Assembly (NCBI GenBank): GCA_000004695.1
Contig: CH709158.1
Span: forward strand, 1 to 9,512
Length of the DNA stretch: 9,512 nt
Direction: 5' to 3'
DNA from: Dictyostelium discoideum
Taxonomy: Eukaryota
The notes under the pieces are model-generated. The model did no database searches. It was not told where the DNA came from and worked only from the letters and a program-made list of their open reading frames with translations. Shown here piece after piece: positions 1 to 9,512 of this stretch (the stretch's first letter is position 1; every line of letters starts with the position of its first letter). A program made the position numbers and the translations under genes.

Positions 1-230
1 GCATATTACATTACTAATTATAGTTGACACACATTTAAATAATATAATAATAATAATAATAATAATAATACTGTCGACTCATTATGAATAATATAAATAC
101 TAAAGAATAATTTTATAAACAATATTGAATATTATAAATATAAATTAATATTAAATAAAGATAACAAAGTATTATTCAATTATATAATTATTAATTATAT
201 ATATTTATAAAGCTAACAAGCTTTATTACA
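1..230 (+). repeat. 5' LTR (partial), ending with ATTACA.
   Basis: Near-identical to 4772..4998. The only differences are one G/A SNP (pos 76 vs 4846) and one extra AAT unit in the (AAT)n tract 46..70. Confidence 0.9.
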
Positions 231-232
231 TT

Positions 233-249
233 TGGCGACATCGTCTTTC
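233..249 (+). promoter_or_regulatory. Candidate primer binding site (TGGCGACATCGTCTTTC), 2-3 nt after the 5' LTR end.
   Basis: It begins with TGG, complementary to the tRNA 3' CCA, and sits immediately 3' of the LTR terminus ATTACA. I could not identify the cognate tRNA from memory. Confidence 0.45.
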
Positions 250-250
250 A

Positions 251-343
251 AAAAAAAAAAAAAAAAAAAATATACTATAAATATAAAGTTATCAAATTAT
301 TCAATCAATTAAAATTTTACATTAGATTAAATTTAATTTAATA

Positions 344-430
<87 letters not shown>
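251..430 (+). repeat. Oligo(dA)-rich leader of the retroelement.
   Basis: A-runs at 251..271 and 351..429. The second is about 80 nt of nearly pure A interrupted by g/ttt. Confidence 0.8.
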
Positions 431-431
<1 letters not shown>

Positions 432-605
432 TTTTTTATGAAAACCGTATTTTTTTCGGGTAATGGAAAGGGTTAATCATTCTTTAATTTCAACCACTAA
501 CTCTTATTAATTCATGGCGAGGAAATATCGAAAGCTGATATTATTAGAAAACTAAGAAACAATGCATTGGAATATGCCGCAACATTGGATACAGACTTAA
601 CAGCA

Positions 606-3600
606 ATGGAGATAATTGAAGATCTTAAAGATGCTTTTGATATTGGTGATAGTGATGATTTATCAGATTTAACAAAGTTAGGAGAATATAAATACAATAC
701 ATTAGATATATTAATTGGTAAATTTCTTTCAAAATGTTCAGCAGTTGATATTTCAGAAAAGTTTAAAATACAATTGTTTTATTCAGCTGTTGGTATTGAA
801 TTGGGTATTGAAATTACAAAATGTGCACCAAAATCATTAAAAAGAGCAATAGACATTGCAAAGTCTTGTGAAGATGGTTCAATTCGTATGAGAGGTAGAT
901 CAATGTATACTGGTCAATTGGTTGCAAAAACATTACAAGAATTTGGAACTCAAAAGTATCTTGGTTCTGGATCTGGTTATACAACATCACCACAGTACGT
1001 TACATCTCAAACTGAACAATCTACTGAAACTGAAGTATTAGCAACTCCAATTTATAAAAATCAAACATATTCACCACCACCATCACCTTATAAAGCACCA
1101 CAAAATCAAGTAAATTCAATCACAAAATTTTGTAAATATTGCAAAAAGAAAGGTCATGTAATTCAAGAGTGTTGGTCTAAAGATAAAAAGAATAATTATA
1201 ATGAGAATAAACAATCATATAATAATCATAGCACTAATGCAATTACAATGGTTAATGATAAAACGATTAATTCTATTGGAACTGATAGTATGAATGCAGC
1301 ATTATTAATAAATGATAAGAATGTTAGAGGTTTAGTTGATACTGGTTCTTCTCTTACCATCATTTGGGAAAGTATTGCTAAAAAATTAAATTTAAAAGTT
1401 GAAGGTAAATCATTTTCAGTTAATTCAGCATCAAATAATGAAATTAAGATAGTTGGTAGTTGTGATACCATAATTAAATTAGGTAAAGCATCCGCAAAAG
1501 TTAATGTTAATATTGTTAAAGATAATGATACTTCAATCGATTGCATTTTTGGTGTAGATACACTTATTGGATTGAAATTAATAATTGATTGCAAGGAAAT
1601 GATCATTAAGAATCTTGAATTTAATGTTGGTACAAGATTAATCACCAGAGAAACCAAACCAATTGTTTGCAAAATTGATCTAAATATATTAGAAAAAGTA
1701 TCAAAACCAATGGCTGAGTTATTAATCAAAAATGAAGAGATTTTTGAAACCAAATTGTCAAAACCAGGATCATTAATAGATGTTGAACATTCAATTAAAT
1801 TAACTGATGAAAATGTTTCTGTTTATACTCCACCATACAAAACTAGTCCAGCTGATAAAGAATTCATTGAAGAATACATTAAAGATGCATTAGATAAAGG
1901 TATAATCGAGAAATCAGATTCATCACAATACGGTTCTCCAATAGTCTTATCCAGAAAGAATGATAAAATTAGATTTTGTGTTAATTATAAAAAACTAAAT
2001 GACCTCACAATTAAAGATAGATATCCACTTCCATTAATTTCTGATTGTTGGTATTATCTCAAAGATGCAAAAGTTTTCTCAAAAATTGATCTTACTTCTG
2101 GTTATTATCAAATCAAAATGAAAGAAGAGGACAAGGATAAAACAACCTTTGTCTCTCATATGGGTCAATTTAGATATGTTGTAATGCCATTTGGATTATG
2201 TAATGCACCAGCAACTTTTCAAAGATACATGAATGAATTATTAAAGGATGAATTAAGAAAAAGTAATATTGGGTTTATTGACGATTGTATAATTTATAGC
2301 AAGAATAATGAATATCATATTGAACATGTCAAACTATTATTCGAAAAATTCAAAGAAAAAGGTGCAAAGTTACAAATAACTAAATGTGAGTTTGAAAAAG
2401 AAGAGATCAAGTTTTTGGGATATATCGTTTCAAAGAATGGTATTACTTATGATAGTTCAAAGTTTAATGAATTATTAAAAACACCACCTCCATCAAATCA
2501 AAAAGAATTAATGAAATTACTCGGTACTGTCAATTACTTTAGAACATTCATTAAAAATTTCACTCATTTAACTTCATCATTTTATCCACTATTAAAGAAG
2601 GGTGTTAATTTCAAATGGACTGATGAATTGGAAAATGATCGTGTAAAATTATTTACTACATTAGCACAAACTAATCTTTTAAGTTTTCCACAAGATACAG
2701 ATGATAATGTTATTGAAACTGATGCTTCAATTATTGGTATTGGTGGTGTAATGATTCAAAATGGTAAACCAGTTTCTTATTATTCAAGAACATTAAACAA
2801 CGCTGAAAAGAATTATTCTGTTACTGAAAGAGAATGTTTGGCAATCATTGAATCAATTAAATATTTTAAATCCTATATCAATGGTAGAAAAGTAAAAATC
2901 ATCACTGATCATCAACCTTTGAAATATCTCTTAACTGGTAAATTTACTGATCGTATTACAAGATGGACTGTATTACTTCAAGAGTATAATTACGAAATTA
3001 TATATAGACCTGGTAAAGAAAACTTTTTAGCTGATGCATTATCAAGATGTCCAGATAGAGATCAACAGCCAATTGATTGTGATATTCCAGAAAAGATATT
3101 TACAATTACTCACTATCCAGTAGCTTCACCATCAACTACAATTTTACCAAGAGTCTTACCATCAAGATCAAATCAAACATCTAATGTTTCACCAGCTACA
3201 ACAATTCAACCACCAAATTCATCAAGTTCAAATCAATCATCAAATATCCCACCAACAACAAACCAATCATCAAATATTACAAATCAACCAATAAATACTT
3301 CATCAATGAATTTAAATCAATCATTATCAAATCAAGCAACAACCGCTAGATTATTGAATAGTGTACCTATCTCAATCAACAATGATAATATTAATACAAC
3401 AACTCCACAATTTACACAAGAGTCAATAAGAAAAGAGTTGGAAAAAGAAAATTATTATAGAGCAATGTATAAATATCTTGAAGAAACAAGACTTCCAGAC
3501 AATGCACAAGCAGCAAGAAGAATTTTGTTCGAGTCTGAATTTTATTCAATGATTAATGGATTTCTTTGTCACGGTTTAAAACATACTTTATCAAGTAAGA

Positions 3601-4718
3601 AATCTCATTTTAAACATCTTCAAATTGTAGTTCCAAAAACTATGACTAAATGGATAATGGAAATATTTCATGATTCGCCACTTACTGGAGGACATTTTGG
3701 ATTATTAAAAACTGTCGCAAAAATCAAAGAAAGATTCTATTGGATTGGTATGATTAAGGATATAAAAGAATTTATCGATAAATGTACAACTTGTTTACAA
3801 ATTAAAAGAAAGTATGGTCCAAAAGAAGGTTTACTCATTCCAATTGAGATTGAACCTGAACCATTTAATACAATTGGTATTGATTTTATTGGTCCAATTA
3901 CAAAAGATAATGCTCAAGTTTATTTGTTGGTTGTTATGGATTATTTTACTAAATGGCCAGAAGTTTTCTTTACCCTTGATATGGAAGGGGAGACTGTAGC
4001 TCAATTATTGTTGTATGAAATCTATACTAGATATGGGGTTCCAAAGAAGTTGGTTTCTGATCGTGGTAAGAATTTTTTAAGTAATGTAGTCTCTGGTGTT
4101 AATAAATTATTCGGTGTTCACAAATTAACAACTACTGCTTATCACCCACAATGTGATGGTCAAACTGAAAATTTCAATAATACATTAATTAAGATGCTCA
4201 AAGCTTTTATTGGTAATGAATTGTATGGCAATTGGGGTGAATTATTAAGATGTGTTTTATACTCATACAGAATTACACCACATGTTTCAACTGGTTTTTC
4301 ACCCTTTTTCTTACTTTTTAATCGTCAACCAACTTTACCATTAGATACAACTTTAAATGTAAATTTTTATTCAAATTCACTAAGATTAGATTTCGCTGAT
4401 AATTATGCACAATCCGTAAATAATAATCTTAAACGTGCCTTTTGGTTTACAAAGAATAATCTCGATAAAGCTCAAGAATTACAAAAAACAAATTATGATA
4501 AAGGTCGTCGTCCAACAAATATTCAAACAGGTGATTTTGTTTATTTACATACACCATATTCACAAACTTCTATTGGTCCAAAGAAATTCTATAAACCTTG
4601 GAGAGGTCCTTTTAAAGTTCAAGAAAAAGTTAGCGATGTTACATTCAAATTAGATATGGGTAATCTTAGAGATCATAAAGTAGTCAATATTGAAAGATTG
4701 AAAAAAATTTTCAACTAA
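606..4718 (+). CDS. Gag-Pol polyprotein of the LTR retrotransposon. The frame is open from 501 and the ORF-track start is TTG 567.
   Basis: First in-frame ATG at 606 and TAA stop at 4716..4718. There are no internal stops or frameshifts between the gag and pol parts. Confidence 0.9.
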   Translation: MEIIEDLKDAFDIGDSDDLSDLTKLGEYKYNTLDILIGKFLSKCSAVDISEKFKIQLFYSAVGIELGIEITKCAPKSLKRAIDIAKSCEDGSIRMRGRSMYTGQLVAKTLQEFGTQKYLGSGSGYTTSPQYVTSQTEQSTETEVLATPIYKNQTYSPPPSPYKAPQNQVNSITKFCKYCKKKGHVIQECWSKDKKNNYNENKQSYNNHSTNAITMVNDKTINSIGTDSMNAALLINDKNVRGLVDTGSSLTIIWESIAKKLNLKVEGKSFSVNSASNNEIKIVGSCDTIIKLGKASAKVNVNIVKDNDTSIDCIFGVDTLIGLKLIIDCKEMIIKNLEFNVGTRLITRETKPIVCKIDLNILEKVSKPMAELLIKNEEIFETKLSKPGSLIDVEHSIKLTDENVSVYTPPYKTSPADKEFIEEYIKDALDKGIIEKSDSSQYGSPIVLSRKNDKIRFCVNYKKLNDLTIKDRYPLPLISDCWYYLKDAKVFSKIDLTSGYYQIKMKEEDKDKTTFVSHMGQFRYVVMPFGLCNAPATFQRYMNELLKDELRKSNIGFIDDCIIYSKNNEYHIEHVKLLFEKFKEKGAKLQITKCEFEKEEIKFLGYIVSKNGITYDSSKFNELLKTPPPSNQKELMKLLGTVNYFRTFIKNFTHLTSSFYPLLKKGVNFKWTDELENDRVKLFTTLAQTNLLSFPQDTDDNVIETDASIIGIGGVMIQNGKPVSYYSRTLNNAEKNYSVTERECLAIIESIKYFKSYINGRKVKIITDHQPLKYLLTGKFTDRITRWTVLLQEYNYEIIYRPGKENFLADALSRCPDRDQQPIDCDIPEKIFTITHYPVASPSTTILPRVLPSRSNQTSNVSPATTIQPPNSSSSNQSSNIPPTTNQSSNITNQPINTSSMNLNQSLSNQATTARLLNSVPISINNDNINTTTPQFTQESIRKELEKENYYRAMYKYLEETRLPDNAQAARRILFESEFYSMINGFLCHGLKHTLSSKKSHFKHLQIVVPKTMTKWIMEIFHDSPLTGGHFGLLKTVAKIKERFYWIGMIKDIKEFIDKCTTCLQIKRKYGPKEGLLIPIEIEPEPFNTIGIDFIGPITKDNAQVYLLVVMDYFTKWPEVFFTLDMEGETVAQLLLYEIYTRYGVPKKLVSDRGKNFLSNVVSGVNKLFGVHKLTTTAYHPQCDGQTENFNNTLIKMLKAFIGNELYGNWGELLRCVLYSYRITPHVSTGFSPFFLLFNRQPTLPLDTTLNVNFYSNSLRLDFADNYAQSVNNNLKRAFWFTKNNLDKAQELQKTNYDKGRRPTNIQTGDFVYLHTPYSQTSIGPKKFYKPWRGPFKVQEKVSDVTFKLDMGNLRDHKVVNIERLKKIFN
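1131..1172 (+). other. Gag CCHC zinc knuckle (CKYCKKKGHVIQEC).
   Basis: C-X2-C-X4-H-X4-C pattern at aa 189-202 of the ORF. Confidence 0.85.
1284..1601 (+). other. Aspartic protease domain, with active site LVDTGSS (DTG at 1338..1346).
   Basis: Retropepsin D-T-G-S motif followed by the hydrophobic stretch IIW, plus a later GVDTLIGL-like flap region. Confidence 0.85.
1749..2441 (+). other. Reverse transcriptase domain.
   Basis: Motif A KIDLTSGYYQI, the PFGL.NAP motif, and FIDD (a YXDD variant) at 2274..2285. Confidence 0.9.
2679..2936 (+). other. RNase H domain.
   Basis: IETDASIIGIGGV (catalytic D at 2721), TERECLAI (E around 2826) and ITDHQPL (D at 2907), in typical Ty3/gypsy RH arrangement. 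Confidence 0.85.
3117..3416 (+). other. S/T/N/Q/P-rich low-complexity linker between RNase H and integrase.
   Basis: About 100 aa (aa 851-950) dominated by S, T, N, Q and P, with SSNQSSNI-type repeats. Confidence 0.8.
3669..3794 (+). other. Integrase N-terminal HHCC zinc-binding domain.
   Basis: H1035, H1043, C1073 and C1076 (HDSPLTGGH...CTTC). Confidence 0.85.
3849..4346 (+). other. Integrase DDE catalytic core.
   Basis: D at 3882 (IGIDFIG), D at 4059 (LVSDRGKNF) and E at 4167 (GQTENFN). Confidence 0.85.
4524..4715 (+). other. Integrase C-terminal GPF/Y module. There is no chromodomain.
   Basis: WRGPFKV...HKVVNIERLK matches the GPY/F motif. It lacks the aromatic-cage spacing of chromodomains. 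Confidence 0.7.
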
Positions 4719-4730
4719 AAGGGGGGGATA
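4717..4730 (+). promoter_or_regulatory. Polypurine tract (AAAAGGGGGGGATA) abutting the 3' LTR.
   Basis: A pure purine run overlaps the stop codon and is directly followed by the LTR start TGTAAT at 4731. Confidence 0.85.
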
Positions 4731-4998
4731 TGTAATAAAGTTACTCTATAAAATTAATAGATATTAAATATGCATATTACATTACTAATTATAGTTGACA
4801 CACATTTAAATAATATAATAATAATAATAATAATAATACTGTCAACTCATTATGAATAATATAAATACTAAAGAATAATTTTATAAACAATATTGAATAT
4901 TATAAATATAAATTAATATTAAATAAAGATAACAAAGTATTATTCAATTATATAATTATTAATTATATATATTTATAAAGCTAACAAGCTTTATTACA
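4731..4998 (+). repeat. 3' LTR (TGTAAT...ATTACA).
   Basis: It matches the 5' LTR. The 6-bp terminal inverted repeats are TGTAAT and ATTACA, and it contains (AAT)7 at 4817..4838. Confidence 0.9.
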
Positions 4999-5452
4999 TT
5001 TTGAAATATTTTTGAAATATTTTTGCACCATTACGTTTTATTTCCATTCCAAAAAAAAAAAACGTTTTATTTTTCATTGGGAAGAAACTAATAATTGTGT
5101 TATCCAATTCAAAAAAGTATTTTTCATTTAAATTATTTTTTTTATATAATTCTACAGTATTTCATGAATGTTCATTTTTATTCTTTATTATTTTTTTTTT
5201 TTTAATTTTTAATTTTTTTTTTTTTTTTTTTTGAAAATTAAAATCAAAACCAAGATATTTTTTTTTTTTTCTTCCCTTATTTTTTTTTTTTTATTTTTAT
5301 AACTATTCTTTAATAGAATTCTTTTTTTAAAAAAAAAGAACACCATGGAAGCTTTTTTGTTTTTTTTTTAAAAATGGATATAAATTATTATTTTTTTTTT
5401 TTAAAAAAATAAAACAAGATAATATCCAAAAATAAATAAAACAGAAAAAAAA

Positions 5453-5968
5453 ATGCCTCCAAAGATTAAAATAATTACAGGTCCAATCGGTTCTGGAAAA
5501 ACAACAATTTTAAATAGAATCAAAGAGTCATATGAAAGAAAAGAAATCTTTATTGGTCAAAAGGTTGGATTTTTTGGTGAACCTACTGATTCCACTGTAG
5601 CTAATGCTCTCCTAAAGGATATGTACTCAAAGTTTCCATTTGCTAATGATCAGTTTGAAACTTTACAAAAATACCTAATGGCTGTGGAAGCTAATGATTT
5701 ATGTAATGCTTTGTCATCGTCAGAGTATGATATTGTTTACTTTGATACATCGGTTTTGTATGGAGTTGTATTTTTACAAACTGCTAATGATTTGAAAATC
5801 ATAAACAATCAAACCTATTCAAATTGTCTAACGTTTTACTATCAAATGATTTCAAATATTAATTTCGAAAATGCTGAAGTAACCAATTTAAAAGTCATAC
5901 CACACATAGGTGTATGGAGCAAATTAACCAAAGAGGTAGAGCCTTTGAAGTCGGTAGTTTATCTATAG
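5453..5968 (+). CDS. P-loop kinase-like protein, possibly a deoxynucleoside or nucleotide kinase family member. The reading frame appears interrupted.
   Basis: Walker A motif GPIGSGKTT at 5480..5506, then a GEP motif about 27 aa later and an FDTS motif reminiscent of dNK ERS. AAAAATG start context. Dictyostelium-like codon usage. Confidence 0.5.
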   Translation: MPPKIKIITGPIGSGKTTILNRIKESYERKEIFIGQKVGFFGEPTDSTVANALLKDMYSKFPFANDQFETLQKYLMAVEANDLCNALSSSEYDIVYFDTSVLYGVVFLQTANDLKIINNQTYSNCLTFYYQMISNINFENAEVTNLKVIPHIGVWSKLTKEVEPLKSVVYL

Positions 5969-6059
5969 ACTATGTTTCCAAATTAACCGATAAAATTCGA
6001 TCTCATTGTGTTAGCCAAGTTTATCAAGACTTGAAAAACCAATAAAATGCTGTATCCAT

Positions 6060-6239
6060 AGAGAATACAAAAGCAATGATGACCTGTTCAATGACATTTT
6101 CTTTAATGAAAATCCAAACTCAATTCCCACACCATCAAATACTCTAACTCAATCTCTTCAAAGTTCACACTCAAATCTTAGTTTTTATTACCCATCGAAT
6201 CAAGAGCAATATTTTAATATTCAAGATTATTTGAATTAA
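6060..6239 (+). CDS. Possible 3' part of the same kinase-like gene in a different frame (REYKSNDDLFNDIFFNENPNSIPTPSNTL...QDYLN*), reached via an intermediate segment 5968..6047.
   Basis: Coding-like, less AT-rich sequence continues to TAA 6237..6239 in frame 0. The segment 5968..6047 is open in frame 1 (DYVSKLTDKIRSHCVSQVYQDLKNQ). No AT-rich GT..AG introns were recognisable between the pieces. Confidence 0.3.
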   Translation, partial: REYKSNDDLFNDIFFNENPNSIPTPSNTLTQSLQSSHSNLSFYYPSNQEQYFNIQDYLN

Positions 6240-6321
6240 TAAAACTAAATTCTAAATAATACTATAAAAAAAAAAAAAAAAAATAAAAATATATTTAAAT
6301 TAAATAAAAAAAGAAAAAAAA

Positions 6322-6507
6322 ATGTCTACATTTGCCGATCTTCGTTCTGTTTCAGGTGGCTTACTAGGTGGTATGGGTAGTATTGGTGTTGCCGCTCTTG
6401 GTGCCTACTTTATTTATACAAGTGAAATTGGAAGCGTTGATTTCAATATGGGTGTTGGTTTTGCTGCCTTTGGTTGTCTCTTAGTCTCAGATCATTATTC
6501 AAAATAA
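6322..6507 (+). CDS. Small glycine-rich hydrophobic protein (61 aa), a putative membrane micro-protein.
   Basis: AAAAATG start context. The product carries GxxxG-like repeats (GGLLGGMGSIGVAALGAYF, GVGFAAFGCLLV). GC content is higher than the flanks. Confidence 0.45.
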   Translation: MSTFADLRSVSGGLLGGMGSIGVAALGAYFIYTSEIGSVDFNMGVGFAAFGCLLVSDHYSK

Positions 6508-6666
6508 AAATGATTAAAGAAAAATGATTAAAAGAAAAAAAAATAAAATAAAAATTTTTAAGATAACTAGATTTCAATGATTTTTTTTTCAATTATTATT
6601 TATCAAAATTATTTATTTATTTAAAATAAAAACAAAAATAGTTGATGGTTTTATTTGTTTTTTTCT

Positions 6667-6918
6667 TCATTTTCTTTTGGCACATAATCTAACAACTTTT
6701 CCATCTATATACTGAAGATTTGTTAATAATTCAGTTCTTTCTTTAAAACGATTTTTTTTTACGATTTTTTCTTTACAGTCAGCTGTACATACACAAGGTT
6801 CAAACTTGGGGAATTCATCTGGATCTGTTAATAGCCACATGTATTTACTCTTTTTTTCCTCAGCTTCTTCAATGGATAAATTTGAATGTGGGCACTTATT
6901 AGTAGTTCTTTCTTCCAT
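6667..6918 (-). CDS. Hypothetical 83-aa protein with a CPH...CVC..C cysteine cluster and a basic C-terminus.
   Basis: Clean ATG..TGA ORF on the minus strand with Dictyostelium-like codon usage. The coding-like composition contrasts with the AT-rich flanks. Confidence 0.45.
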   Translation of the reverse strand: MEERTTNKCPHSNLSIEEAEEKKSKYMWLLTDPDEFPKFEPCVCTADCKEKIVKKNRFKERTELLTNLQYIDGKVVRLCAKRK

Positions 6919-7167
6919 TATTTAAGTTGTAACTATAAATATGTTTGTGCGATAATGTTTTATTTTTAATGTTAGTAAAATAAGTATTAAAAAAAAATTA
7001 AATTATTATTTAAAAAAAATAGAAAAAAACTGTGGGTGTGGTGTTTTAATGATTCCAAAAAAAAAAAAAATCAATAATAAAATAAAAAATTTTATAAATA
7101 AAATCTTTAATCTTTTTTAAATTAACTCTTATATAATTATTTTGTAAATGGTTATTTCAAAATTAGA

Positions 7168-7415
7168 CCTAATGATCATGAGACCCTACGCTCTACCAAT
7201 TGTGCCAACCCGACATGTTGATATTTTTTGACAAAAAATGCTCAATCTGGTGTTATCCAATTCAAAAAAAAAAAGTTTCTTAATGATTTACCTTAGGATT
7301 ATGAGACCTGCACTATACCAACTTAACCAAACTGATATGTTGATATTTTTCCTTAGAAAAATGACTAACCAGATATTTTTTAATGTTGAAAAACTCAACC
7401 ATCTGGAATTCAAAA
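7168..7415 (-). repeat. Degenerate tandem duplication of two ~123-bp units, each carrying a tRNA-Met-like fragment covering the D-arm and a CAT anticodon arm.
   Basis: Minus-strand reads GGCACAATTGGTAGAGCGTAGGGTCTCATGATC (7168..7217) and GGTTAAGTTGGTATAGTGCAGGTCTCATAATCCTAAGG (7291..7334). Each is followed on the + strand by a shared GATATGTTGATATTTTT and a CTCAA..CTGG..TTCAAAAAAAA motif. No T-arm or acceptor 3' half is present. Confidence 0.6.
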
Positions 7416-7498
7416 AAAATTATAACCTTTACATCAACACCCCAAAAATTGAGGCTAATTCAATACCAACTACATAAGGTTAAGTTTAAAACAAAATA

Positions 7499-7545
7499 AT
7501 AAAAATTAATAATAATAATATTAACAATAATAATAAGAAATAAAA
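7499..7545. repeat. AAT/ATA-rich microsatellite-like tract.
   Basis: Imperfect (AAT)n: aataataaaaattaataataataatattaacaataataataag. Confidence 0.6.
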
Positions 7546-8249
7546 AAAATTTATTAAAAAACAATATCAAAACTCTGAGGCTTTGGGTTATATTATGGAA
7601 TTTCTTTTGGCAAAAAGAAAAAAAAAAAAAAAAATAAAATTCTAAGAAAAACTTACATAATTTAGAATAAGTAATTAAGAGATAATAGATAACACTATAT
7701 GTATGTTTTAGTGTAAAATTTCTTTTATAACCTTTAATTAAAATTTTTATTTTTCTCACCATTTTTCGTTTTTTCAAAAAAACTTAAAATGCATAATTTG
7801 GATAGTCTTTATTTGAAAGTAAAAAACCAGGAATGATAAGAAAAATAAAAATTTAAAATAAAGATTATAAAAAATAATTAACACACCAAAACATACCATA
7901 TGTTATTTATTATCTCTTAATTATTTACTTAATCTAATAGATATTCTAACAAAACATTTAAAAATAATTAGTTATGAAATACAAATATATGAATTAAATA
8001 TATGTTTAGAAATAAAACAAATAATTAAAACAAATAAAAGATTTATTATTGTTATGGAAATTGTAAAATAAAAACTGATGTTAGTCTCATTACAATTATG
8101 GGCGATGGTTTTTGCTAATAAAATTTAATAAGGCTTTAAAACTTTTTTTTTTTTTTTACATCTCTTTAAAAATTCCAATTTTCTTGCAACTTTCTTCCAA
8201 ATTTTAAGAAAGGTGATCATTTCCAGTATTTAAAATAAATTTCCATCAA

Positions 8250-8323
8250 GCCTTAGTAGCTCAGTTGGTACGAGCGTGAGACTGAAGATCTTAAGGTCGC
8301 TGGTTCGATCCCGGCCTGAGGCA
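8250..8323 (+). tRNA. tRNA-Phe (anticodon GAA).
   Basis: Acceptor GCCTTAG/CTGAGGC plus discriminator A. D-arm GCTC-AGTTGGTAC-GAGC. Anticodon loop CTGAAGA. T-arm GCTGG-TTCGATC-CCGGC (B box GGTTCGATCC). No encoded CCA. Confidence 0.9.
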
Positions 8324-8327
8324 AATA

Positions 8328-8333
8328 TTTTTT
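8328..8333 (+). terminator. Pol III oligo(dT) terminator.
   Basis: TTTTTT begins 5 nt after the tRNA 3' end. Confidence 0.75.
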
Positions 8334-8393
8334 GATGGTTTTCCAATGGCTGATGATCACTCCGCCGAAAAGACACAGTCTGATCACAGGTAA

Positions 8394-9071
8394 AAAAAAA
8401 AAAAAAAAAAGTTAAATCATACAGATAACAACACAACCAATACAAATAATACCTCCACAACCTCAACAACAAAAAACGAAAGTGCAAAAATCGACACACC
8501 TAAAAAACAAACCCTAACAAACCAACTCTCACTAAACAAAGGACTTGATAATCAATTAGATATCATTGCACCTCCATCAATCACAAGACCACTCTCCTTC
8601 TTAGAAAAAAACAATAACACCATCAACATTAAGTGTTACTTTAATCAACCACACATCCATGAAGAATTAACCTCTAAAGATGACACAAGAATCCAACAAA
8701 TTCACAAAAATATTCACAAACTCTTCGAAGATATACTGTCGCCATCAGCATTTAAAATAATTGGTGCAACAGCCTTGGTAAATTGCAACGTTGATAAATT
8801 AACTTCAATAATCAACCTTCAAAACCAACTTGCACTAAATATAGACAAACTCAACTATAGATTCGATATATCATCAAATGATTATGCAACCATTAAAACA
8901 TTCATTAAAACGTACTCACCCAAACATGCAAACGATGCAATTATAAACAACCTCACTAAATTCACCAGTTGTACATCAATTGAATCATTTACTGTCACAT
9001 ACTCATATGCTGTTGCGTTTAAAAGCTACATTATAACATATCATCTAATTGATCACACACAACATTGTTGA
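8394..9071 (+). CDS. Open frame without an ATG inside an A+C-rich, T-poor block. It is candidate ORF sequence of a tRNA-gene-associated repetitive element (TRE3-like) or a 5'-incomplete gene.
   Basis: Frame 0 is open from the TAA at 8391..8393 to the TGA at 9072..9074, about 226 codons. There is no in-frame ATG. It starts with poly-K from a 19-nt A-run. Strong strand asymmetry (A about 50%, C about 25-30%, very few T) begins abruptly at 8411, 88 bp after the tRNA end. Confidence 0.35.
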   Translation, partial: KKKKKKLNHTDNNTTNTNNTSTTSTTKNESAKIDTPKKQTLTNQLSLNKGLDNQLDIIAPPSITRPLSFLEKNNNTINIKCYFNQPHIHEELTSKDDTRIQQIHKNIHKLFEDILSPSAFKIIGATALVNCNVDKLTSIINLQNQLALNIDKLNYRFDISSNDYATIKTFIKTYSPKHANDAIINNLTKFTSCTSIESFTVTYSYAVAFKSYIITYHLIDHTQHC

Positions 9072-9369
9072 TCAAAAGATCGAACAACCATCTGGTATCA
9101 CAAGATATATCAAAGCTGCAACACGTAGTGTCACTAAACACAAAATTCAACATGCAAAAAATGCAGATATGGCAACAACTATAAAAAATGCTCTCACAAA
9201 CCCAAATATTAACAAAAACTATCAACCACCAAAAAACAACATTAACACCCCACCAATCAACGAAATTGCAAATTCCAATCGCAATAATAACCCACTTCAA
9301 AATAGTGGTTCAAAAGCTACACTAAATGAATCACTTAATAATAACGGGAAAAACTCATTATCAATGTGA
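9049..9369 (+). CDS. Overlapping downstream ORF in frame +1 (N/P/Q-rich, 106 aa) within the same A+C-rich block.
   Basis: ATG at 9049 and TGA at 9367..9369. It overlaps the upstream frame by 23 nt. This layout fits either an ORF1/ORF2-type overlap or a frameshifted pseudo-ORF. Confidence 0.25.
   Translation: MITHNIVDQKIEQPSGITRYIKAATRSVTKHKIQHAKNADMATTIKNALTNPNINKNYQPPKNNINTPPINEIANSNRNNNPLQNSGSKATLNESLNNNGKNSLSM
9230..9345 (+). repeat. Left arm of a large imperfect inverted repeat (palindrome).
   Basis: The reverse complement of 9238..9345 matches 9398..9505 at about 92% identity. The mismatches are gaaccactattttgaag vs gaacaactatttggaag, gggtt vs gggct, and tgcg vs tgtg. Confidence 0.85.
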
Positions 9370-9397
9370 GATTTCATTATTGTTTTGGGATTGATTG

Positions 9398-9512
9398 TTA
9401 TTATTAAGTGATTCATTTAGTGTAGCTTTTGAACAACTATTTGGAAGTGGGCTATTATTGTGATTGGAATTTGCAATTTCGTTGATTGGTGGGGTGTTAA
9501 TGCTGCTTTTTG
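9398..9512 (-). repeat. Right arm of the inverted repeat. It runs to the window end.
   Basis: gttattattaagtgattcatttagtgtagcttttgaac... is the reverse complement of ...gttcaaaagctacactaaatgaatcacttaataataac. The spacer is 9346..9397. Confidence 0.85.

Follow-up and report, generated by a model that had tools for sequence, protein, structure and literature searches.

The window analysed here is a 9,512-nucleotide (nt) stretch of Dictyostelium discoideum DNA (assembly GCA_000004695.1, contig CH709158.1, positions 1 to 9,512 of the forward strand), and we have found that its positions 8339-9366, which are located directly downstream of a tRNA-Phe gene, are very probably a dead fragment from the 5' end of a D. 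discoideum TRE3 retrotransposon, most likely of the subfamily TRE3-B; we refer to this fragment as copy A. Both the element family and the way it behaves have been described before. Its identity, anatomy, copy number and association with tRNA genes are shown here from sequence, while the account of how REARRANGEMENTS arose, including the order and the mechanism of the rearrangements, is one that we infer from the comparison of copy A with its relatives.

Several copies of one D. discoideum repeat match the block at 93-97 % identity. Three copies of this repeat are located within a single locus (L001) of a second D. discoideum assembly, GCA_054883475.1; the window itself is aligned with L001 2208-11724 at 98.9 % identity over its full length. 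The translation of the first open reading frame of the repeat (ORF1) matches five D. discoideum proteins (P0001-P0005) at 85-96 % identity and nothing else, with these proteins being located on four large contigs, two from strain AX4 and two from the second assembly. The second open reading frame of the family (ORF2) falls into clusters at 90 % identity, one with 13 and one with 29 members, drawn from AX4 and the second assembly. The block is thus part of a multi-copy repeat, and neither a single-copy host gene nor a sequence free of similarity to repeat families, the two outcomes that the first-pass annotation of this DNA had set against its own suggestion of a TRE3-like, tRNA-targeted element.

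The two-ORF architecture of the family is established on intact relatives, with the window fragment holding ORF1 only. The full-length relatives, i.e. L003 3842-9157 and a minus-strand copy in L001, consist of ORF1, followed by ORF2 in the -1 frame and by poly(A). The best intact relative (L003 3842-9143 plus A14) is 5302 nt long, with a 5' untranslated region (UTR) of ~160 nt, an ORF1 of 402 aa that starts with MADDHSTELQLNHTDN, and an ORF2 of 1275 aa in the -1 frame, connected to ORF1 through an ATGA stop/start overlap. In this ORF2, Pfam identifies Exo_endo_phos at residues 8-231 (E = 1.2e-12) and RVT_1 at residues 502-732 (E = 3.4e-31), i.e. an endonuclease and a reverse transcriptase (RT), and a CPIC...H...C (CCHC) knuckle can be read from the translation near the C-terminus. 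The 3' tail and the target-site duplication are likewise seen in the relatives, the 3' end of the window copy having been lost: the L002 copy has an A22 tail and carries a 10-nt duplication, TCATCATTTC, on either side, while the L003 copy has an A14 tail, with the same target sequence being reused. Judging from these features, the family is a non-LTR retrotransposon (one without long terminal repeats, LTRs) of the LINE (long interspersed nuclear element) type, integrating by target-primed reverse transcription. The ORF1 protein has yielded no comparable signature: Pfam searches with the window ORFs and with the intact ORF1 returned nothing significant, a PDB sequence search with ORF1 returned no match, and an AlphaFold2 model of the 219-aa part of ORF1 from the window, built on a 6-sequence alignment, has a mean pLDDT (predicted local distance difference test) of 35, too low for the model to be of use.

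According to the literature, TRE3 elements are located 40-150 bp downstream of a tRNA gene, whose orientation they share, and have two ORFs, with an APE-RT-ZF (endonuclease, RT, zinc finger) ORF2 reached via a -1 frameshift, and an oligo(A) tail (PMC5911963); the distances observed are 14-228 bp for TRE3-A and 34-188 bp for TRE3-B, and tandems arise at one tRNA gene through repeated targeting (PMC5006619). In the window, the presumed targeting landmark is a tRNA-Phe(GAA) gene at 8250-8323 on the plus strand (ARAGORN; Rfam RF00005, 62.5 bits), the one tRNA gene of the window. The element-derived sequence starts 16-21 bp after this gene, on the same strand, and its main block starts 88 bp after it; the distance of about 90 bp that had been proposed previously is correct for the A/C-rich block, but the repeat-derived sequence begins already at 8339-8344. 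A relative in L001 is located ~40 bp past a tRNA-Met gene, and the L003 copy is located 62 bp past a tRNA-Lys gene, with a second, tandem copy behind it; both are in the orientation of the tRNA gene, and relatives at these 40-62 bp distances carry the endonuclease/RT ORF2. Because the multi-copy nature of the family, its ORF1-ORF2 architecture and its co-oriented placement downstream of tRNA genes all match the literature, the window block is almost certainly a TRE3 element, as the first-pass annotation had suggested.

Three further observations concern the targets of the family. At L003 3829-3841, a B-box-like 13-mer, GGTTCAAATCCCA, separates the first base of the full-length TRE3-B element from the 5' copy of an apparent target-site duplication; it may be the external B box of the tRNA gene, or it may consist of 5' transduction nucleotides from the source locus. 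A TTCGAA motif is similarly placed ahead of the copy at the tRNA-Met gene of L001. Lastly, the L002 copy (L002 9852-16247) interrupts a ketoacyl-synthase (polyketide synthase) gene and has no tRNA gene closer than 10 kb, i.e. it is an off-target integration, and it carries an internal insertion of 1.13 kb (L002 11998-13127).

Anatomy of copy A and the filler within ORF1

The base composition of the window changes abruptly inside the fragment, as the first-pass annotation had described. Positions 8412-9369 have base fractions of A 0.444, C 0.236, G 0.088 and T 0.233, compared to A 0.44, C 0.10, G 0.089 and T 0.371 in the upstream intergenic DNA (7800-8249) and to C 0.137 and G 0.124 in the whole window, while the sliding GC skew falls from ~0 to -0.64 at 8401-8600 and the AT skew rises up to +0.49. 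The block can be called T-poor relative to its flanks, but not otherwise. The switch occurs at G8411, the first base past a run of 19 A (A19, 8392-8410), and it is there that the repeat consensus resumes. The open frame that follows (8412-9068) has 219 codons and, as had been reported, no in-frame ATG; a second frame of 106 codons (9049-9369), in another reading frame, continues it. The 15-codon mini-ORF MADDHSAEKTQSDHR (ATG 8346, TAA 8391) is indeed in frame with the long ORF, with the A19 run between them.

The multiple alignment of copy A with the intact copies accounts for each of these features. The 3' flank of the tRNA-Phe gene (8324-8338, plus strand) has no match to the repeat consensus in this alignment and is therefore host DNA; it includes a T6 run (8328-8333) that resembles an RNA polymerase III (Pol III) terminator, while the internal B box of the tRNA gene, GGTTCGATCCC, is read at 8302-8312. 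The first element-derived stretch (8339-8362, plus strand) corresponds to the last bases of the 5' UTR and to codons 1-6 of ORF1 (MADDHS, ATG 8346), and CAATGGCTGATGATCACTC at 8344-8362 is a 19-nt exact match to the start of ORF1 in every other copy. The true 5' junction of copy A is therefore located at about 8339-8344, with ~140 nt of the upstream 5' UTR being absent, and the A-run, which the first-pass annotation had considered as a 5' junction of the element, lies inside ORF1. The mini-ORF is thus the genuine N-terminus of the ORF1 protein, since the N-termini of the matching proteins read MADDHSTELQLNHTDN, which is also the consensus.

Past the A19 run, the ORF1 region of the element (8411-9366, plus strand; alignment and protein matches P0001-P0005) corresponds to element nt ~188-1206, so that copy A overall spans element nt ~146-1206. 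From 8411 onward, it is 97.3 % identical to nt 188-1125 of the first L003 element, 97.1 % identical to the copy at the tRNA-Met gene of L001 and 93.5 % identical to the L002 copy. The (CA)5 of the intact copies is (CA)4 at 9054-9061, a 2-nt frameshift, and it is this loss of a CA dinucleotide that gives rise to the stop at 9069 and to the second ORF at 9049-9369. An in-frame deletion of 60 nt (20 codons) is located at 9345/9346, between two AATAATAAC repeats. Since the promoter region, the 5' UTR, an intact ORF1 and ORF2 are all missing, copy A is a dead relic that cannot transpose.

Between its two element-derived stretches, copy A contains a 29-nt filler, CGCCGAAAAGACACAGTCTGATCACAGGT (8363-8391, plus strand), which brings in the TAA at 8391, followed by the A19 run, which we read as the poly(A) tail of a short insert. 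The filler and the A19 run (48 nt, 8363-8410) stand in place of 12 consensus nt, AACTGAATTACA, and the A-run is found in none of the other copies aligned; the TAA and the A-run are thus part of a replacement within ORF1, and not a poly-Lys tract interrupted by a stop. When the filler was searched as 10-mers and 11-mers in six loci (~86 kb), which hold TRE3-B-like, TRE3-A-like, TRE5-A-like and DGLT-A elements, only chance matches of 10-11 nt were found. We have also considered the 3' end of a TRE3-B-like, a TRE3-A-like or a TRE5-A-like element as its source, and have ruled these out, as the 3' ends inspected differ from it.

In its general form, 29 nt followed by A19, the filler looks like a retro-inserted, polyadenylated RNA fragment. 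An analogous mini-insert, 16 nt followed by A15 (TACACCGCTTTTAGGT), is found in a TRE3 target site at L003 9175-9205, where a 12-nt target-site duplication flanks it; the window filler has a similar end, ...AGGT(A)n. The target in question, TTTTAGTATTACCAAAA(G), located downstream of the tRNA-Lys gene (L003 9157-9226 and 3813-3841), has been used three times, i.e. by a TRE3-B copy, by the mini-insert TACACCGCTTTTAGGT and by a second full TRE3-B copy, and the site therefore records repeated, position-precise targeting, as well as very short integration products. Because the L003 mini-insert is located at the target of two full TRE3-B integrations, we favour a later TRE3-type integration, abortive or trans-mobilised, as the origin of the window filler, with 12 nt of the target being deleted, although we give this origin about an even chance; the filler may alternatively be a cDNA that was captured during the repair of a break. 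Short polyadenylated mini-inserts at TRE3 target sites would suggest abortive integrations, or the trans-mobilisation of other RNAs.

A different and rather less probable origin is that both the filler and the missing 5' UTR date from the original retrotransposition, during which the RT would have switched templates to another polyadenylated RNA and back. Template switching gives chimeric 5' ends in LINE elements, the filler is flanked by stretches of one element in the correct order and orientation, and it has no target-site duplication around it. On the other hand, two switches would be needed, with a return to the element at most 12 nt from the point of departure; the comparable mini-insert in L003 is a separate event, with a duplication of its own; and the filler is located 40-52 bp from the end of the tRNA-Phe gene, which is the distance preferred by new TRE3 integrations.

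Subfamily of the window copy

The assignment of the window copy to TRE3-B, which we regard as probable, follows from the comparison of two D. discoideum families that are located downstream of tRNA genes. The published consensus lengths are 5229 bp for TRE3-A, 5279 bp for TRE3-B and 4734 bp for TRE3-C, and the copy numbers are 67 for TRE3-A and 43 for TRE3-B, with TRE3-D having no known full-length copies (PMC5006619). The 5302 nt of the L003 element, minus two private indels (10 and 11 nt, relative to L002), amount to ~5281 nt, which fits TRE3-B. The second family, whose copies are placed 67 bp after a tRNA-Thr gene (L005) and, as a fragment, 125 bp after a tRNA-Ala gene (L006), is 5231 nt long without its tail (L004 2052-7282) and has an ORF2 cluster of 79 members; its length and its larger cluster fit TRE3-A. 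The ORF2 cluster of the window family includes a GenBank entry, AAD43057.1 (1275 aa), which is named only 'pol'.

The window family shares with TRE3-B of D. discoideum (Szafranski et al. 1999; Glöckner et al. 2001, as cited in PMC5006619) the length of its intact copies (~5.28-5.30 kb, compared to the 5279-bp consensus), an ORF2 in the -1 frame, the order endonuclease-RT-zinc knuckle, the oligo(A) end, its rank as the second most abundant TRE3 family and an ORF1 without relatives; the window copy itself differs from a TRE3-B element in comprising nt ~146-1206 only, without the 5' UTR, and in its 48-nt replacement, its frameshift, its 60-nt deletion and its fusion to an inverted copy. With TRE3-A (Tdd-3), the window family has in common the integration niche, the orientation, the domain order and the composition, but the TRE3-A-like family of L004 and L005 has an ORF2 that is just 44 % identical, an unrelated ORF1 (BLASTP E = 0.37) and different 5' and 3' UTRs. 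TRE5-A (DRE), present in L006 and as fragments in L003-L005, is a related tRNA-targeting element of the L1 clade with the same ORF2 domain order; it differs in inserting ~50 bp upstream of tRNA genes and pointing the opposite way, in having an ORF2 that is ~33 % identical, and in its 3' end, ...CTCTTTTAGAGACCCTGT(A)n. More broadly, by sequence identity, the ORF2 of the window family is 44-53 % identical to those of other D. discoideum families located downstream of tRNA genes, and 31-37 % identical to that of the TRE5-A-like family, located upstream of them in the opposite orientation. BLASTP of the window-family ORF1 against the TRE5-A-like ORF1 has found no similarity, and the absence of ORF1 similarity to both the TRE3-A-like and the TRE5-A-like families agrees with the literature, according to which the ORF1 proteins of TRE elements are mutually unrelated.

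That the window copy belongs to another TRE3 subfamily (TRE3-A/Tdd-3, TRE3-C or TRE3-D) is unlikely, although individual copy lengths vary by tens of nt. The distinct and more abundant 5231-nt family nearly equals the TRE3-A consensus in length, while sharing no ORF1 similarity with the window family and having an ORF2 of limited identity, and the intact 5.3-kb copies exclude TRE3-C and TRE3-D.

Several points weigh against the reading of the block as a 5' fragment of TRE3-B. The subfamily call is an indirect one, based on length, relative abundance and the 'pol' entry; the 5' junction, at 16-21 bp from the tRNA gene, is within the range observed for TRE3-A but outside that of TRE3-B, and thus suits the former better. 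Two of the six family copies examined, i.e. the L002 copy and the inverted copy that adjoins the window fragment, have no adjoining tRNA gene. A 5' fragment without a 3' end is atypical of a LINE insertion and calls for an additional, inferred rearrangement at the DNA level. Lastly, the filler has no target-site duplication, and no match beyond chance in the loci searched.

The inverted copy and the junction

At its 3' side, copy A is fused to a second, oppositely oriented copy of the same element, which we refer to as copy B. The comparison of both arms with the intact copies places the junction at 9365-9366, within a 2-nt (TG) microhomology that joins element nt ~1206 of copy A to element nt 1157 of copy B; the TGA at 9367-9369, which closes the second ORF, is a product of the junction, and the end coordinate of 9369 that the first-pass annotation had given to the block corresponds to a real boundary. 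Copy B (9365-9512, minus strand; blastn and inverted repeat) runs from element nt 1157 down to nt 1010 at the end of the window, with the inverted-repeat arms 9230-9345 and 9397-9512 being 95 % identical. In L001, copy B extends to a complete, canonical 5' UTR and 5' end (AAAAAAAACGAAACAAAGAAATAAAC..., L001 ~12720), and neither the tRNA scan nor the annotation of L001 places a tRNA gene or an RT gene next to it.

The head-on arrangement is very unlikely to be an assembly artefact caused by a chimeric read, or by one that folds back, at the window end. Inverted repeats at contig ends are a classic artefact, and the three differences between the window and the second assembly all occur in the last 60 nt of the window. 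However, the second assembly, an independent one from another D. discoideum strain, has an identical junction (L001 11575-11585) and continues through copy B into unique DNA and genes; moreover, the arms are 95-97 % identical and have different indels, while a fold-back would yield identical arms. Because the second assembly agrees in the filler, the deletions, the junction and copy B, differing at 3 positions in 1313 nt, the structure is real and predates the split of the two strains. The differences, at window 9452, 9503 and 9506, are the only ones across 8200-9512 and are clustered in the inverted arm; at each, the window has C where L001 has T, equivalent to A to G on the sense strand of copy B, and the G-U pairs are kept in the predicted hairpin. 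Their possible causes are sequencing error near the repeat, gene conversion or clustered mutation.

Copies A and B also share the loss of the CA dinucleotide and eight private substitutions, six of which are located within the 345 nt nearest to the junction. This pattern fits gene conversion between the arms as well as descent from a common variant master copy, two possibilities that the four outgroup copies cannot separate.

The simplest account of the head-on fusion, which we put forward as a reconstruction, is that two convergent insertions lost their 3' halves, together with the spacer between them, through a near-symmetric deletion. In element coordinates, just 49 nt separate the breakpoints, in keeping with the instability that is known for long inverted repeats. 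We have considered other origins and set them aside. A single retrotransposition product, including twin priming or cDNA snap-back, is rejected on topology, as the RNA 5' ends point outwards; a fold-back copy of copy A is rejected, as the two arms have diverged at 5 % of sites and copy B possesses a canonical 5' end of its own and an unrelated flank; and an origin by inversion, or as the outermost unit of a tandem array, is rejected on the canonical full-length 5' end of copy B and the absence of an adjoining tRNA or RT gene. The flank of copy B corresponds neither to the inverted flank of the tRNA-Phe gene nor to the 3' end of a TRE3 element in inverted form.

The history of the locus can be sketched from the life cycle of TRE3 elements: RNA is transcribed from a master copy; the ORF1 and ORF2 proteins, the latter with its endonuclease, RT and zinc knuckle, assemble on this RNA; the Pol III transcription complex at a tRNA gene directs this assembly to a site tens of bp downstream; and the RNA is copied into a nick by target-primed reverse transcription, in the orientation of the tRNA gene. 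Copy A would first have integrated downstream of the tRNA-Phe gene, either 5'-truncated by ~140 nt or losing its 5' UTR later; the 29 nt with A19 would then have entered at the preferred TRE3 distance, displacing 12 nt of ORF1, by abortive integration or by capture in break repair; slippage of the 2-nt CA and a repeat-mediated deletion of 60 nt would have damaged ORF1 further; and, lastly, the part of copy A that is 3' of nt ~1206 would have been lost on its joining to copy B (nt 1157) through the 2-nt microhomology, the near-symmetric deletion of the centre of the two convergent copies being the likely cause.

The structure of the inverted pair also raises the question of its transcription. 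The minus strand of window 9230-9512 (283 nt) has a predicted fold of -177.9 kcal/mol (z = -27), and in full the arms are ~0.94 kb long, 95-97 % identical, and face each other across a 51-nt spacer. In maize, Mu killer (Muk), a naturally occurring locus in which the 5' part of MuDR is duplicated in inverted orientation, produces a hairpin RNA that silences MuDR. By analogy, although we consider it improbable, the inverted pair might, if transcribed, act as a natural hairpin-RNA gene that silences TRE3-B in trans, the one functional possibility that we see for this locus: transcription from the 5' UTR of copy B, the presumed promoter, would cross the junction and read copy A in antisense, and the resulting long double-stranded RNA would feed the RNA interference machinery of Dictyostelium and silence active TRE3-B copies. 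If this were true, the two strains would share the structure because it has been retained, and not simply because it has survived. The locus is similar to Muk in that two 5' fragments of a single transposon are arranged in inverted orientation around a short spacer, in a predicted transcript that folds into a long hairpin, and in that copy B, in L001, keeps the 5' UTR with the presumed promoter. It differs in that Muk is a DNA-transposon derivative, in that its own arms are similar but not identical, and in being known from its sequence and a predicted fold. Small RNAs of TRE3-A have been reported in D. discoideum (PMC6161686).

Annotated genes and neighbouring elements

The first-pass annotation had also considered a host protein-coding gene, poly-Lys or Asn/Thr-rich, broken by a stop and only incidentally close to the tRNA gene; the long open frames, the low-complexity, N/T-rich sequence typical of Dictyostelium proteins and the 'hypothetical protein' genes that automatic annotation places here (in the other assembly) and on the relatives (including AX4; P0001-P0005) are in its favour, but we reject it as having almost no probability, as near-identical sequence occurs at many loci, where it runs into an endonuclease/RT ORF, contiguous with it in the intact copies, and on to a poly(A) end and a target-site duplication, while the A-run is missing from all other copies, ORF1 has no Pfam or PDB relatives and the annotated models are spliced fusions across the frameshifts and deletions of repeat copies.

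The models in question are ACTFIT_003714 (P0001) and ACTFIT_003729 (P0002) in GCA_054883475.1, which cover damaged ORF1 copies at L001 10001-12572 (~window 7790-9512 and beyond), and DDB_G0268596 and DDB_G0290713 in AX4, which are likewise spliced fusions across damaged TRE3 ORF1. All four are, from their alignment with the repeat, annotation artefacts and not real genes. The significance of the finding is mostly one of annotation, in that repeat masking should treat the region as TRE3; the locus also offers a compact example of how tRNA genes gather retroelements in the gene-dense Dictyostelium genome.

The other features of the window are located upstream of the tRNA-Phe gene. Positions 1-5001 are a Ty3/gypsy LTR retrotransposon of the DGLT-A type, with LTRs of ~270 bp (1-233 and 4731-5001) that are 4771 bp apart, and an open frame of 1405 codons (501-4718) that encodes protease, RT, RNase H and integrase; there is apparently one stop only, near the N-terminus, past an ATG at 429. 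In L001, the left LTR of DGLT-A starts 13 bp upstream of the tRNA-Met gene that has a TRE3 copy ~40 bp downstream, and this spacing fits the 13-33 bp upstream of tRNA genes that has been reported for DGLT-A (PMC5006619). As no full-length copy has been found in AX4 (PMC5006619), the nearly intact copy of the window may be notable.

Between the DGLT-A element and the tRNA-Phe gene, a 171-aa ORF at 5453-5968 (plus strand) has weak P-loop/deoxynucleoside-kinase-like Pfam matches, all under the curated cut-offs, and presumably represents a host gene's first exon. An AT-rich inverted repeat (7668-7774/7821-7927), with 107-nt arms that are 77 % complementary and a 46-nt spacer, is located ~320 bp upstream of the tRNA-Phe gene and is conserved in L001. 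Lastly, on the minus strand of 8100-8200, ...GGAATTTTTAAAGAGATGT is followed by A15 (T15 at 8143-8157), ending 50-100 bp upstream of the tRNA-Phe gene, i.e. in the TRE5 integration zone; the stretch weakly resembles the TRE5-A 3' end ...CTCTTTTAGAGACCCTGT(A)n of L003-L006, and it may be a tiny remnant of a TRE5-type element or a chance resemblance.

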